The notes under the pieces were generated by a model. That model saw nothing but the letters and a program-made list of their open reading frames with translations, was not told the origin of the DNA and made no database searches. Positions 5,278-59,359 of a stretch of 60,471 nt of DNA are shown one piece after another; the first letter of the stretch is position 1, and the number at the start of each line of letters is the position of its first letter. The translations under genes and the position numbers were made by a program. Origin of the DNA: a virus; IMG/VR virus record IMGVR_UViG_3300025651_000001; one strand, written 5' to 3'.

Positions 5278-5320
5278 GGGCCGGGGCTGTACCGTACTAC
5301 AGCCCCGGCCCTTCTTCTGT
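5278..5320 (+). terminator. Intrinsic terminator of the rightward early block
   Basis: 13-bp GC stem GGGCCGGGGCTGT / ACAGCCCCGGCCC followed by TTCTTCTGT. Confidence 0.75.
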
Positions 5321-54057: not shown

Positions 54058-55574
54058 CAGAAACCCCTCTGGCCAGCACTGCGCCGCATCCGGCGCACCC
54101 TGTATCTCAGCTCGTCCCCGATGTGGTCCTCAGCGTCCGTGTGGACGTCATCGGGGTTCTTGTCGTCCCGGGGCAGCACGGGCACTGTCTCGATGAACTG
54201 AAGACAGTCCTCCGTGACCCAGAGGCCCGGCCGATCCGGGGCCCCGACCTTGACAGCCTGCAGGCGCTCACGGATCATCTGCCAGCCCTGGCTCCGGCTG
54301 CCCGGCTCCTTCGCCGCGCGCTCCCACCGGACGCCCTGGCTGCGCATCGCCTCAGCGATGTTTGGTGAGCCAGGACGCGGGTCAAAGATAGACGTGTCCG
54401 CCGGCCCCGGCAAGACGCGCCCAACTATTCCCATACGGCGCTCACGCAGGATGATGCCCTGAGCAATGTCCGTCGGGGGCATGTTCAGGCCCTCGTTGCG
54501 CTTGCCGGTGAAGCCGTACCACTCCGCGAAGCGCACCAGGTCGCCGCGCACATGCCCAATCACACGGCCGTCCGGCAGCGTCATGGGCTCGCCATTGCTC
54601 TCGGCATACCATCCCACACTGAACGGGCGGCTCTGGCCGTAGTCGAAGGCCCGATCAATGCGCCAGCCCGACGGGATATTCCGGGGATCGATCCGTGGGA
54701 TGACGTGCACCTGCCCATCCCACAGATCGTCGAACATGCCGCCCGACGTGATGTCCCAGCTGCCCTCCAGCCAGGCGCGCAGCTCGTTTGGGTTGCGCGC
54801 CGACATGCGTAGGCGGTTGATGTAGTCCGGGTCCGCGTCGAGCAGTATACGGTTTTCCATCAGGTGGCCGTGGATGGCGACGCGCGGCGGCTCGGGCGAG
54901 CCATCCGGCCCAACGGCATCGACGATGACGCGCGAGCGCCCGTGGGGCAGCCGGAAGCGCGCCTTGACCCAATTGTGACCGACGCCGTATGGGTTGGTGG
55001 TGGCCCGATACTTCCTCGGGATGCCGGGCACCGTCGAGCGGCAGCACGACATCATCATCCGGTAGCCCTCGTCAGTCGGCCAGGTCGTCAGCTCCTCCCA
55101 CCCAATGAATGGATAGGCGTGGCCGTGATAGTTCCAGTAGTCGCTGGGCCGGTCGAACTGCCGGAACAGCAGCTGCTCACCGTCCGGGAACGTCCACGTG
55201 GACTTGGCCTGGTTGTACTGAGCCGCATCGCCCCAAATCAGGCGAAACCACTTCTGGGACTTGGCGATAAGGTCCCCCAGCTGTGGATAGGACTGGCGGA
55301 AGATGACGCCGCGCCACTCCGGCCCAAAGCCCTGGCCGACGTGCTGGGCGAAGTCCATGAGCAGCGCGTCCGTCTTGCCCGGGCCGCGCGTGCCCTCGTA
55401 CAGCACCTCAAAGACAGGGCAGCTCAGGAACGCCGTCTGCGAGCCGGGCTGCGGCACCCACACGGGTGTCCCTGCAGGCTTTGGAGGCTCAATCCAACCC
55501 GGCGGCACGTTCTCGTGGTGTCGCGGCGAGCCGCCCATCATGATCTCACTTCTCGGACGCTGTCGGACTGTCAT
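54057..55574 (-). CDS. terL: Terminase large subunit (505 aa)
   Basis: Walker A YEGTRGPGKTD. The C-terminal half has Asp-rich nuclease-type motifs. First large gene of the late block. Confidence 0.85.
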   Translation of the reverse strand: MTVRQRPRSEIMMGGSPRHHENVPPGWIEPPKPAGTPVWVPQPGSQTAFLSCPVFEVLYEGTRGPGKTDALLMDFAQHVGQGFGPEWRGVIFRQSYPQLGDLIAKSQKWFRLIWGDAAQYNQAKSTWTFPDGEQLLFRQFDRPSDYWNYHGHAYPFIGWEELTTWPTDEGYRMMMSCCRSTVPGIPRKYRATTNPYGVGHNWVKARFRLPHGRSRVIVDAVGPDGSPEPPRVAIHGHLMENRILLDADPDYINRLRMSARNPNELRAWLEGSWDITSGGMFDDLWDGQVHVIPRIDPRNIPSGWRIDRAFDYGQSRPFSVGWYAESNGEPMTLPDGRVIGHVRGDLVRFAEWYGFTGKRNEGLNMPPTDIAQGIILRERRMGIVGRVLPGPADTSIFDPRPGSPNIAEAMRSQGVRWERAAKEPGSRSQGWQMIRERLQAVKVGAPDRPGLWVTEDCLQFIETVPVLPRDDKNPDDVHTDAEDHIGDELRYRVRRMRRSAGQRGF

Positions 55575-55657
55575 GTCCGCTCAACTCCAGATCCCACTCC
55601 CCCAGGTCAGTCACGCGGGAACATAGCGCCTGTTGGGTGAGCAGTCTAGTCGCCCGC

Positions 55658-55927
55658 TCAGTTCATCCTCAACGCCGCCTCGGCCAGCTCCTCGCTGGTG
55701 CGCCGGTCGTCAGGATAGATGCGAAGGCACAGCGGACAATGCTCCGGCTCGCCCTTGCAGGCCAGCTCCTCATTGTCGTCGGGCGTCGTACGCAGCAGGA
55801 TGTCCACAGAGCCCAGGTCGTCGCCCACCCAGCCCGCCGGATTGCGGCAGACGAACACAACTCCGTCCTCCTCGATCTCCTCGCGCGCAACCGAGATTGC
55901 AGTCACCAGGTCATCATAGTGCATCAT
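55658..55927 (-). CDS. Hypothetical acidic protein (89 aa); first ORF of the late block
   Basis: GGAGCACGAG RBS, ATGATG start. Does not look like a TerS. Confidence 0.6.
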   Translation of the reverse strand: MMHYDDLVTAISVAREEIEEDGVVFVCRNPAGWVGDDLGSVDILLRTTPDDNEELACKGEPEHCPLCLRIYPDDRRTSEELAEAALRMN

Positions 55928-55956
55928 CTCGTGCTCCAGCGGCTGATTCTGCCTGG

Positions 55957-55996
55957 GGAGAGAACAGAGAGGCCCAAGAACTTCCGTCCTTGGGCC
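55957..55996 (-). terminator. Leader terminator/attenuator hairpin upstream of the late genes
   Basis: On the - strand: GGCCCAAGGAC-GGAA-GTTCTTGGGCC (11-bp stem, GNRA loop) followed by TCTCTGTTCTCTCC. Confidence 0.5.
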
Positions 55997-56003
55997 CCCT
56001 GGG

Positions 56004-56045
56004 TCACTTCGTCCGCGTCTTGTCCCGCCCCAGCTTGGTCGCCAT
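56004..56045 (-). CDS. 13-codon leader ORF (MATKLGRDKTRTK)
   Basis: GGAGG RBS 6 nt before the ATG. The stop lies 8 nt before the leader hairpin. Confidence 0.3.
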   Translation of the reverse strand: MATKLGRDKTRTK

Positions 56046-56074
56046 GGCAGCCTCCGGCAGTGTTAGCGGCTGGA

Positions 56075-56104
56075 ATCATAGCTCAACCCAACTCCGGGAG
56101 TCAA
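56075..56104 (-). promoter_or_regulatory. Leftward promoter PL2 (TTGACT, 18 nt, TATGAT)
   Basis: Read on the reverse complement: -35 at 56099-56104 and -10 at 56075-56080. Confidence 0.55.
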
Positions 56105-56363
56105 TCCTGTGTGTGGTGTGCGGGCCGGATTGAAGGCCCGGGGTGTGAGAAAGGTGTGGGGCGTGTCCCGGTCGTGTGTTTTTGTGTGTTTTTGTGTGGT
56201 GGGTACTGTGTCCCGGATGTGCGATCCTGGCCGTTGGAGGAGGGGAGATGAGTCCTGGGGTTGAAACTGTTGGCGCGCTTGCGGTGGAGGTGCACGCACC
56301 ACGGGGGTTGTTTGATTGTCACAGGGGGGCCAGGTGGGGTGGTTGGTTGTCTTCAACCATCTT
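56105..56363 (-). other. CA-rich (GT-rich on +) untranslated leader transcribed from PL1
   Basis: The - strand reads ...CCACACAAAAACACACAAAAACACACGACC.... Only low-complexity ORFs without an RBS are present. Confidence 0.45.
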
Positions 56364-56369
56364 ACAAGT

Positions 56370-56398
56370 ATTATAGTAGAGGAAGGGAGATAAGTCAA
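56370..56398 (-). promoter_or_regulatory. Leftward promoter PL1: perfect consensus TTGACT(-35)... TTGACT, 17 nt, TATAAT
   Basis: Reverse complement reads GAAAAAATTTGTCCGAG...TTGACTTATCTCCCTTCCTCTACTATAAT. It shares the TTGACTTATCTCC core and upstream A-tract with the early promoters. Confidence 0.75.
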
Positions 56399-56486
56399 GA
56401 GGGAATATCGCCACTCGGACAAATTTTTTCTACAGACAGACACCACACACATGTTGTTTGGTTGGTTGGTACAGAGTGGTTGGTTG

Positions 56487-56582
56487 GAGGGAAGGAAGAG
56501 AAGGAAGGAAGAGAAGGGAGGGAGAAGGGAGGGAGAAGGGAGGGAGAAGGGAGGGAGAAGGGAGGGAGAAGGGAGGGAGAAG
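56487..56582 (+). repeat. Purine-only tandem array: 6 perfect copies of the 11-bp unit GGGAGGGAGAA (56516-56581) preceded by degenerate GGAAG repeats
   Basis: Period 11 was verified from the block-by-block shift. There are 12 consecutive G3 tracts on the + strand. Confidence 0.95.
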
Positions 56583-56634
56583 GTACGTCGCCCTAGATGG
56601 TTGGTTGGTCAGTACAGGATGGTTGGTTGTAGGC

Positions 56635-56876
56635 AGAGGGCCGAGGGCCGAGGGCCGAGGGCCGGGCGAGGGCAGAGGGCCGGGCAGAGGGCCGGGCAGA
56701 GGGCCGCCGAGGGCCGGCGCTGGGCAGAGGGCCGCCGAGGGCCGAGGGCCGAGGGCCGAGGGCCGGGCGAGGGCCGAGGGCCGGCGAGGGCCGAGGGCCG
56801 GCGAGGGCCGAGGGCCGGGCGAGGGCCGAGGGCCGGCGAGGGCCGAGGGCCGGCGAGGGCCGCCCAGGGCCAGGCC
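56635..56876 (+). repeat. About 25 copies of the heptamer (G/C)AGGGCC, with a 17/18-bp higher-order unit GAGGGCCGAGGGCCGG(G)C repeated 6 times at 56769-56871
   Basis: Copies were counted directly. All are in one orientation. G-runs are on the + strand. Confidence 0.95.
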
Positions 56877-56945
56877 GAAACTCAAGCGGCGCTTGGCGTT
56901 GAGCCACGCAGACGAAAAAAGTTGTCTCGGAGGCAATTTTTCCAC

Positions 56946-56974
56946 TTGACTTATCTCCGGTCCTAGGCTATCCT
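56946..56974 (+). promoter_or_regulatory. Early promoter PE3 (TTGACT, 17 nt, TATCCT); divergent from PL1
   Basis: Same core as PE1. Upstream GAAAAAAGTTGTCTCGGAGGCAATTTTT. Confidence 0.7.
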
Positions 56975-57024
56975 GGAACCATCGATAGAGGGCGACGCCC
57001 TCGGAACAGGAAGGGAGAACACAG

Positions 57025-57240
57025 ATGACCCGCCAGGACCGCAAGGCCATGCACAACGAGCTGATCGAGCACGGCGTGCCGTACTGCCTCACCTATCGCT
57101 GGAGCGATGGCTATGTGCAGCGAGCCTATCAGCCGGCCGATGACGCGCAAGAGCTGGCCGACTGGTTGCGCGAGAACAGCCGGCTCGCCCGCCTGCTGTA
57201 CGTCCGCGACCTGCGCACCGGCCGCTTCTGCCGCGTCTGA
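57025..57240 (+). CDS. Hypothetical early protein (71 aa)
   Basis: GGAAGGGAGA RBS. First gene after PE3. Confidence 0.7.
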   Translation: MTRQDRKAMHNELIEHGVPYCLTYRWSDGYVQRAYQPADDAQELADWLRENSRLARLLYVRDLRTGRFCRV

Positions 57241-57331
57241 CCGGGCACTCCGGATTGACGCTCTACATTGAGGGCGCCGGTCGCCCTCAAGCTAGAGCGC
57301 CCGCCGGGCGCCGAAGGAAGGGAGAACACAG
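57241..57331 (+). repeat. Intercistronic element R1 (double hairpin plus RBS)
   Basis: TTGAGGGCG-ccggt-CGCCCTCAA (57268-57290) and GCGCCC-gcc-GGGCGC (57297-57311), then GAAGGAAGGGAGA. Confidence 0.85.
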
Positions 57332-57718
57332 ATGACCAGGATCCTCGCCAACTATCCTGCGATCACGATCATCGAGGACAAGGATCGGGAGTTCACCGAC
57401 GGCGACGACATCGCCGTTCCCTACAAGTCAGCCCACCACGGCACCCTCTACAGCTTCTACAAGCTGGGCTCTGTTGAGGAGTATGCCCGCAGGTACAGCC
57501 AGTACAGCAGGGACGTAGAGGCCGCCGTCGCCCACGCAAAGCAGAACGGTCATGCCCTCTACTACGCGAACCCACTCGCCACATCGATCACCGCATGGAG
57601 GAGGGAGAAGAAAACCGTACCGGCATTCTCGCACGGCGACGTGATCAGGGCGTTCGGCAAGAAGTTCAGGATCGTACCGGCGCCGAACCAGAACATCCGG
57701 CTCCAGGAAGTTGAGTGA
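57332..57718 (+). CDS. Hypothetical early protein (128 aa)
   Basis: ATG follows the R1 RBS. Confidence 0.7.
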   Translation: MTRILANYPAITIIEDKDREFTDGDDIAVPYKSAHHGTLYSFYKLGSVEEYARRYSQYSRDVEAAVAHAKQNGHALYYANPLATSITAWRREKKTVPAFSHGDVIRAFGKKFRIVPAPNQNIRLQEVE

Positions 57719-57801
57719 GCCTGAAGACGTTCTACATTGAGGGCGCTGGTCGCCCTCAAGCTAGAGCGCCCGCCGGGCGCCGAAGGAAGGGAGACACGAC
57801 C
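57719..57801 (+). repeat. Intercistronic element R2
   Basis: Same about 65-nt core as R1 (CTACATTGAGGGCGCTGGTCGCCCTCAAGCTAGAGCGCCCGCCGGGCGCCGAAGGAAGGGAGA). Confidence 0.85.
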
Positions 57802-58089
57802 ATGGCCAAGTATCAGGTTGAGTACACGGACACGTTCGCCGGCGAAGCCAACTATTCGTGGGTGAGGCGAGCCACCATCTCCATGCCGGAGCTCACGCAC
57901 TACGGCTGGGATGGTTCGACAGGATACCTCAAGGCCAATCGCACGTATCAGCGCGAGCTCATGCGCCGGGCGAAGGCAGCCGTAGGCCTGACTGGTTTGC
58001 GGGGCCGGACATACGACCATGGGGCCACATACGAATTTCGCCCGTACAGGTCCGCCACGGTCATGTTCGTGACGTGGATCGATGACTGA
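57802..58089 (+). CDS. Hypothetical early protein (95 aa)
   Basis: ATG follows the R2 RBS. The GTG-initiated extension reads through the repeat and is rejected. Confidence 0.7.
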   Translation: MAKYQVEYTDTFAGEANYSWVRRATISMPELTHYGWDGSTGYLKANRTYQRELMRRAKAAVGLTGLRGRTYDHGATYEFRPYRSATVMFVTWIDD

Positions 58090-59030: not shown

Positions 59031-59080
59031 GAGACTATCGAAAGAGGGCGATGCCCTCGGAGCAGGAAGGGAGACGTAGG

Positions 59081-59359
59081 ATGGCTACTGTTTCTACAGC
59101 CAAAGCCGCACAGCGATATTTCGAGATGTACGTGATCATCCAGACCCAATACTTCTGTGGGCACAAGTACCAGACGCTCTGGGAGGATGACATTTCCGGC
59201 CGGACTGCCCGCTTTGCCACGGCGAGGGAGGCGCAGGACTACATCAAGGGACTGAGACGCAACATCTACTACTACGCGGCCGGCGAGTATCGGCGACCCA
59301 CCTATCGCGTCTGCCGCATCGACCGTCTGCCGCAGAACCTTGCCGAGACTTTGCACTAA
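59081..59359 (+). CDS. Hypothetical early protein (92 aa)
   Basis: GGAAGGGAGA RBS. Confidence 0.7.
   Translation: MATVSTAKAAQRYFEMYVIIQTQYFCGHKYQTLWEDDISGRTARFATAREAQDYIKGLRRNIYYYAAGEYRRPTYRVCRIDRLPQNLAETLH

Follow-up and report, generated by a model that had tools for sequence, protein, structure and literature searches.

The IMG/VR record IMGVR_UViG_3300025651_000001 is a 60,471-nucleotide stretch of viral DNA (referred to below as the window) that is circular as assembled, with its first 127 nt identical to its last 127 nt. It derives from an uncultured siphophage that is a relative of the Mesyanzhinovviridae and resembles phages YuA and PaMx11. Its TerL protein shares 65% amino acid identity with that of Pseudomonas phage PaMx11, and its portal protein is about 48% identical to those of Bordetella, Stenotrophomonas, and Pseudomonas phages. 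Our subject is the control region on the minus strand that extends from a promoter designated PL1, through a long C-rich leader, to a hairpin immediately ahead of the first late gene. An earlier sequence-only reading of this DNA had PL1 directed into the terminase-to-lysis block, and the gene order agrees with this: an open reading frame (ORF) coding for an 89-residue protein is followed by the genes for TerL, portal, scaffold, and major head protein and so on to endolysin (35499-34345), with helicase and ribonucleotide reductase genes beyond it that reach 26082 on the same strand.

Tandem promoters, a C-rich leader and a hairpin ahead of the late genes

The features of the region, together with related elements elsewhere in the window, are listed in Table 1. 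For comparison we used 16 related stretches recovered by DNA and protein look-ups in IMG/VR, JGI, ENA, and Logan, some of which are the same contig encountered through several collections; fourteen of them span the micro-ORF described below, and they represent at least seven haplotypes from at least ten samples.

Table 1. Coordinates of the control-region features and of associated elements in the 60,471-nt window.
Feature	Coordinates	Strand	Remarks
PL1, sigma70-type promoter	56398..56370	-	TTGACT (56398-56393), 17-nt spacer, TATAAT (56375-56370)
Untranslated C-rich leader	56363-56105	-	A 29%, C 43%, G 17%, T 11%
CACACAAAAA repeat, x2.5, variable in copy number	56198-56174	-	Inside the leader
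P2, second promoter-like site	56104..56075	-	TTGACT (56104-56099), 18-nt spacer, TATGAT (56080-56075); 10/12 match
Micro-ORF with Shine-Dalgarno (SD) sequence	56055-56004	-	GGAGG (56055-56051) 5 nt ahead of ATG 56045; TGA 56006-56004
Stem-loop with pyrimidine tail CUGUUCUCUCC	55999-55957 (stem-loop 55999-55968)	-	Candidate leaky intrinsic terminator or RNA polymerase (RNAP) pause site
First late gene, 89 aa	55927-55658	-	Ribosome-binding site (RBS) GGAG 55937-55934; four Cys; G or C at third codon positions (GC3) 0.82
TerL gene	55574-54057	-	Next after the 89-aa gene
terS	1664-987	-	phrog_4044, E 3.6e-38
GGTTGGTTG boxes	973-981, 1062-1070, 56341-56349, 56460-56486, 56599-56629	one orientation	One box at +15..+23 of the PL1 transcript
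Early promoters	34, 2744, 56946, 59002, 60378	+	Common TTGACTTATCTCCGG..., weak TATCCT -10, upstream palindrome GAAAAAAGTTGCCTCCGAGACAACTTTTTC

PL1 is the sole site in the genome that matches at least 11 of the 12 sigma70 consensus positions, compared with a mean of 0.01 such sites in 200 dinucleotide shuffles, and its transcript is predicted from the sequence to start with an A at about 56363. The promoter had been called perfect; both hexamers and the 17-nt spacing are as claimed, but with 11 of 12 positions matched the description is strictly too generous. Four genome sites reach at least 10 of 12 with a good -35 element, where the shuffles predict 0.96, and two of these, PL1 and P2, form a tandem pair that occupies no more than 330 nt immediately ahead of the late operon. 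The presence of P2 also breaks up what had been taken for a single leader of about 370 nt. A scan for a sigma54 promoter resembling that of YuA did not find one.

Two minor features lie close to the PL1 start. The sequence TAAGAT followed by GG at 56364-56357 (-1 to +7 of PL1) resembles a -10 element, a kind of hexamer that is frequent by chance; by a resemblance to lambda that we treat as a lead only, it could serve as a sigma-dependent pause element. A 13-codon ORF (MVEDNQPPHLAPL; 56360-56319, minus strand) begins 3 nt past the predicted start and is without an SD sequence. Both of the substitutions that it carries among the haplotypes are synonymous (GTT to GTC and GAC to GAT), which is evidence too thin for gene status.

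The leader had been described as CA-rich, and its base composition (Table 1) bears this out. It is also conspicuously unstructured, with a minimum free energy of -58.8 kcal/mol that is 3.6 standard deviations weaker than the genome mean for 259-nt minus-strand windows (-106.9 kcal/mol, standard deviation 13.5). The only such windows that fold more weakly overlap presumably untranscribed repeats further upstream, and the leader is the least structured transcribed window of this length on the minus strand; there is no significant fold relative to its own shuffles (z = -1.08). Segments with at least 38% C and no more than 13% G occur on the minus strand only in this leader and in those upstream repeats. 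The RhoTermPredict procedure (PMC6407284) looks for a 78-nt window with a C/G ratio above 1, a C residue every 11-13 nt, and a GC-rich pause hairpin no more than 150 nt downstream, and the leader has all three and falls into the top class. Its best Rho-loading-like window (56204-56127) contains 36 C and 8 G residues (C/G 4.5) with seven regularly spaced C, and the hairpin begins 128 nt downstream of it. Counted from the predicted PL1 start, some 320 nt of the RNA contain no SD-led ORF, and this part is therefore predicted to be free of ribosomes.

This composition appears to suit a Rho-loading site better than the Hfq/Crc-type sponge that the sequence-only reading had offered as an alternative, and the sponge proposal failed a direct motif test, as the Hfq/Crc motif AANAANAA is absent from the leader and occurs eight times on the whole minus strand. 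If the terminated leader persisted as a regulatory RNA and titrated an RNA-binding protein of the host, a protein of the CsrA/RsmA type recognizing GGA would be a likelier partner than Hfq/Crc. CAGGA is present in three copies in this leader, six in haplotype 2, and four in L088, compared with a background of 0.46 per 260 nt, and the RNA around these copies is unstructured. The extra copies, however, come in part from a slippage-type repeat, GGACACAG, and are not independent, and the copy number is low beside that of CsrB or RsmZ. Lacking both structure and a 5' hairpin, the RNA would moreover probably be short-lived, and when 55000-58000 was compared with Rfam at E<=1, one spurious snoRNA match was returned and nothing else. 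We consider a sponge function highly improbable.

The hairpin has 14 pairs (11 Watson-Crick, eight of them G-C, and three G-U), a GGAA loop, and the tail CUGUUCUCUC, with a predicted stability of -25 to -29 kcal/mol. It lies about 40 nt ahead of the first late RBS, where a hairpin with a GNRA-type loop and a pyrimidine tail had been reported. It ranks among the top five in the genome by stability (uninterrupted stems of at least 10 bp), and the others, at 5314/5276, 26062, 51698, and 5425, are also intergenic. The tail style had been said to recur at other hairpins, and those at 5425-5402 and 26062-26027 do share a (U)CUCUU tail with it; hairpin 26062 follows the ribonucleotide reductase gene, and hairpin 5425 follows the last minus-strand gene. 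The promoter scan revealed no promoter between the hairpin and the late genes.

A further strong hairpin at 51698-51667 on the minus strand (-26 kcal/mol) is without a U-tract and lies between the scaffold and major-head genes, a position that corresponds to that of the annotated terminator of YuA and to that of the non-coding RNA candidate described from the 5' untranslated region (5'UTR) of the major-head gene (PMC10914365).

Conserved and variable parts of the region among haplotypes

Variation among the haplotypes is unevenly distributed. The PL1 region is near-invariant: the promoter itself is the same in each haplotype that covers it, with a single substitution in the 35 nt upstream of it and two or three variable sites in the first ~75 transcribed nucleotides, and P2 is invariant except for a 1-nt spacer insertion in L004. 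The SD sequence, ATG, stop codon, and CCCA spacer of the micro-ORF and the hairpin that follows are likewise near-invariant. The middle of the leader has about 15% substitutions, indels of 23, 8, and 12 nt, and a CACACAA(A/C)A repeat of variable copy number. As a result the leader measures 259, 302, or 336 nt, the indel sizes are not divisible by three, and no long leader ORF can be real. Two candidates are discarded accordingly: a 129-aa ORF (56452-56063) is ruined in other haplotypes by indels of 23, 8, 12, and 11 nt and by a TAA codon, and the frame of a 51-aa ORF (56079-55924) that overlaps the micro-ORF and is ATGA-coupled to the 89-aa gene is broken by the same indels and TAA. We also rejected a nut-like boxA/boxB arrangement (CCUUUCUCA with a small hairpin at ~56150-56125) that is not conserved in haplotype 2, and a small 5' hairpin, GGUUG-AAGA-CAACC at +6 to +19, whose pairing is disrupted in most haplotypes by a U-to-C change.

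The micro-ORF behaves differently, and the claim that the leader holds no credible ORF does not survive the comparison: none of the 14 related sequences disrupts this SD-led frame, which runs from ATG 56045 to the TGA ending at 56004. Its product has 13 residues here (MATKLGRDKTRTK) and 27 residues in another allele (MATKLTLSTAKKGGNMTRIKQDKTRTK). An in-frame 42-nt indel separates the two alleles, and a single synonymous change is seen. All 12 codons past the ATG have G or C in the third position. The distance from the stop codon to the stem is four nucleotides (CCCA) and does not vary in any of the 14 sequences. That a 14-codon indel is tolerated with the frame, the stop, and the 4-nt gap all kept is consistent with translation itself being what matters, and not the peptide. 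No regulatory codon run was found in the micro-ORF, and as to an alternative antiterminator helix, the sole extra helix in the predicted folds (CUGGGG with CCCCAG) is absent from the 27-codon allele.

P2, the micro-ORF, and the hairpin could instead constitute a self-contained, moron-like gene for a basic peptide of 13-27 residues, in which case the hairpin would be its terminator or 3' stabilizer, the PL1 leader would be an ordinary 5'UTR, and the late genes would be expressed by unregulated read-through. The promoter, SD sequence, ORF, and hairpin are indeed packed within about 110 nt, the ORF is intact in all haplotypes with a high GC3, and transcriptionally independent small units are known in phages (PMC10914365). 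The loss of 14 codons from a 27-residue peptide in abundant haplotypes argues against a sequence-specific peptide, however, and as there is no promoter between the hairpin and the late genes, the late operon would be fed through the hairpin anyway. We give this explanation little credence.

The hairpin is invariant except in the haplotype represented by L002, L086, and L087, which through a compensatory double change has A-U in place of G-C as its second stem pair and which carries the tail UUUUGGUU, with a canonical UUUU tract. In the present genome the tail is CUGUUCUC, with just four U residues in the first eight nucleotides. The hairpin of this genome passes a simple terminator scan. By a heuristic terminator score of the d'Aubenton-Carafa type, this allele scores -5 to -17 and the L002 haplotype +21.5; the values for hairpins 26062 and 5425 are +9 and +27, respectively. 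The hairpin is thus probably a terminator of variable efficiency, and a leaky one in this genome.

Micro-ORF alleles are found paired with different leader types in a mosaic pattern among samples, which points to recombination in the population. These natural variants in leader length, in micro-ORF length (13 or 27 codons), and in the strength of the U-tract amount to a ready-made mutant series within about 450 bp. Two of the related sequences, L089 and L094 (ENA ERZ761611 and ERZ761612), are near-identical contigs of 55-60 kb with assembler coverages of about 4800x and 1800x, so that the phage was dominant in those samples.

Possible attenuation of late transcription

The interpretation that we favor, tentatively and at somewhat less than even odds, is that this is an attenuated late-operon leader in which Rho-dependent termination and leaky intrinsic termination are combined, possibly with relief through translation of the micro-ORF. 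Two tandem promoters of the host sigma70 type would drive transcription into the packaging, head, tail, and lysis operon. The first 320 nt or so of the transcripts from PL1 would be untranslated and unstructured RNA, rich in C and poor in G, on which Rho could load, and those from P2 would begin about 20 nt before the micro-ORF, which is predicted to be strongly initiated in both its 13- and 27-codon forms. Both types of transcript would then meet the conserved stem-loop, acting as a leaky intrinsic terminator and as a pause site at which Rho acts. Many transcripts would stop early, yielding short RNAs with lengths near 100 and 400 nt, and late-gene output would be set by the fraction that reads through. 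With the micro-ORF stop invariantly 4 nt away from the stem, a ribosome that terminates there would sit over the stem base and would also separate Rho from RNAP. This gap and the tolerated, frame-keeping 14-codon indel favor translation-coupled read-through over a Q-type protein as the means of relief, and ribosome-coupled relief would be the most attractive mechanism.

A more elaborate proposal dispenses with a Q-type protein altogether and envisages a composite attenuator, with Rho acting on the hypervariable PL1 leader while ribosomes on the micro-ORF both mask the terminator and block Rho, such that the gate would be translation capacity or a phage-induced change in Rho or translation. This full scheme is unlikely, if not negligibly so. 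It bears on the specialized question of how phages of the YuA/M6/PaMx11 family hold back their late genes; to our knowledge these phages have neither an RNAP of their own nor a recognized late regulator. If true, the composite attenuator would provide a Q-independent route to late control; otherwise the region would be an ordinary leaky-terminator leader.

Some components of this interpretation are already known. YuA (NC_010116) has a sigma70 promoter about 420 nt upstream of terS that is active in a promoter trap, and this was confirmed as P014 by ONT-cappable-seq (Putzeys et al. 2024, PMC10914365). The same work describes 42 terminators inside 5'UTRs of Pseudomonas phages, most of which yield a short and a long transcript from a single start. 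Neither premature termination within 5'UTRs nor a long leader behind a host-type promoter upstream of the packaging genes is therefore new, and the present region shares both the promoter-leader arrangement and the terminator-like hairpin in a 5'UTR with these phages; here, too, one start would be expected to give short and long transcripts. It differs from YuA and PaMx11, whose leaders carry other simple repeats and have no comparable hairpin, C-rich tract, or micro-ORF, and it differs from YuA in that terS is displaced by 5.8 kb and the control region is divergent from the early operon. Near and distant DNA searches of 50,697 phage records with the control region gave no match. With neither YuA and PaMx11 nor the more distant relatives considered below sharing it, its arrangement is lineage-specific.

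There are also parallels to attenuators in bacterial leaders. Rho-dependent attenuation is exemplified by the mgtA/corA-type leaders of Salmonella (PMC5314796). As in Rho attenuators, a C-rich, G-poor, unstructured tract of more than 78 nt with spaced C residues is followed within 150 nt by a pause hairpin, and a short leader ORF is placed so as to interfere; unlike those of the Salmonella type, the leader precedes a phage late operon and joins an intrinsic-terminator-like hairpin to the Rho-loading-like tract. In ribosome-coupled attenuators such as those of the E. coli pyrBI and ampC type, a short leader ORF lies so near the terminator hairpin that the ribosome blocks its folding. The short SD-led micro-ORF similarly abuts the hairpin, but it ends 4 nt before the stem rather than reading through it, and neither regulatory codons nor an antiterminator helix were found.

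The sequence-only reading had likened the layout to the control of lambda late genes by Q, the defining features of which (PR', 6S RNA, and tR') are set out in PMC6606751, PMC9388147, and bioRxiv 10.1101/651190. The layout itself holds up: as at PR'-tR', a strong sigma70 promoter precedes the late genes, followed by an untranslated leader and a hairpin directly upstream of the first late RBS. The Q-type mechanism does not find support. If antitermination of this kind, whether lambda-Q-like or AlpA-, N-, or p7-like, operated here, PL1 would be constitutive, its transcripts would stop at the hairpin, and an early protein would make RNAP terminator-resistant late in infection. The layout agrees with such a scheme, and about 15 of the early ORFs are without known function and could supply the protein. 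However, no Q, AlpA, N, or other antiterminator or transcription-factor family was recognized among 20 early ORFs using Pfam (E<=0.1) and PHROGs, in searches that did not extend to the fold level, in keeping with the earlier statement that there is no recognizable Q-like gene; comparison of five of the 20 with PDB sequences gave no relevant match, and one of these matched the anti-CRISPR protein AcrIC8 instead. Unlike in lambda, there is no same-strand gene upstream of PL1, its place being taken by a divergent early operon and by tandem repeats that cover about 550 bp; no Q-binding element is definable without a Q protein. The leader is twice as long as that of lambda, has a Rho-loading-like character, contains a second promoter and a micro-ORF between PL1 and the hairpin that are absent from lambda-type modules, and ends at a hairpin with a weak U-tract that is predicted to be a weak terminator in this allele. 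A Q-like mechanism therefore seems improbable to us.

Several observations weigh against the attenuation interpretation. The poor U-tract and the below-zero terminator score in this allele mean that the hairpin may not terminate at all, and the support for its stem from variation is a single compensatory change. Among 51-55 distant IMG/VR relatives there is no common promoter-plus-hairpin layout upstream of TerL, and no sense-strand excess of C-rich windows (median C/G 1.97, compared with 2.33 antisense and 2.03 in coding sequence). The rules applied for promoters and for Rho are extrapolated from E. coli and Pseudomonas. Finally, the C-rich, G-poor skew continues upstream of PL1 (56434-56647) into DNA that is presumably untranscribed, and the composition of the leader may thus be a property of the DNA rather than of the RNA.

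Upstream repeats, early promoters and neighboring genes

The last of these points leads to an explanation at the DNA level, in which 56130-56900 is a packaging, replication, or regulator-binding region, and the leader skew and PL1 activity contribute to that function or mirror it, for instance by way of the operator-like box at +15 to +23, by transcriptional activation, or by supercoil coupling with the divergent early promoter. The skew covers transcribed and presumably untranscribed DNA alike. The GGTTGGTTG box is present in seven copies where 0.27 are expected, all in one orientation and confined to the terS 3' end and the surroundings of PL1, and a DNA-binding protein, for example TerS or a regulator, may recognize it. 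Between PL1 and the divergent early promoter at 56946 lies (GAGAAGGGAGG)n, a run of 98 nt made up entirely of purines and the only purine run of at least 25 nt in the genome. Of the 12 canonical G-quadruplex motifs on the plus strand, 11 fall in the stretch 56486-56869 that holds this run, where 45 GGG tracts were counted in 421 nt; a G-quadruplex-prone heptamer array is also part of the region. This purine/G-quadruplex stretch is kept in the relatives, with indels, and it might adopt a non-B structure or bind proteins as an array. YuA and PaMx11 also have simple repeats upstream of terS. A role in the DNA would nevertheless leave unexplained the features that belong to the RNA, namely the conserved SD sequence, micro-ORF, stop position, and hairpin, and repeats do not account for the skew of the first 100 nt of the leader, which are conserved. 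As a full account of the region we regard it as quite improbable.

PL1 had also been assigned to the same family as the early promoters. This was not confirmed: the two have in common only TTGACTTATCTCC and half of the upstream palindrome, and the early promoters have the weak -10 sequence TATCCT. The word GAAAAAAGTTG of the early promoters also precedes one of the YuA promoters described as 'phage-cofactor-dependent', and this class of early promoters may be family-wide and in need of a phage factor.

The 89-aa late protein has no Pfam or PHROG match and belongs to no known family, and the homologues found are near-identical ones only. Early genes on the opposite strand, about 5.8 kb in all, lie between terS and terL, whereas these two are adjacent in YuA and PaMx11. 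Among the early genes that were compared with PDB sequences is the one matching AcrIC8; it lies just past promoter PE4 (59051-59359, plus strand) and codes for a 102-aa protein, residues 26-88 of which match the solved structure of this anti-CRISPR protein (PDB 8G9S) with E = 8e-6.

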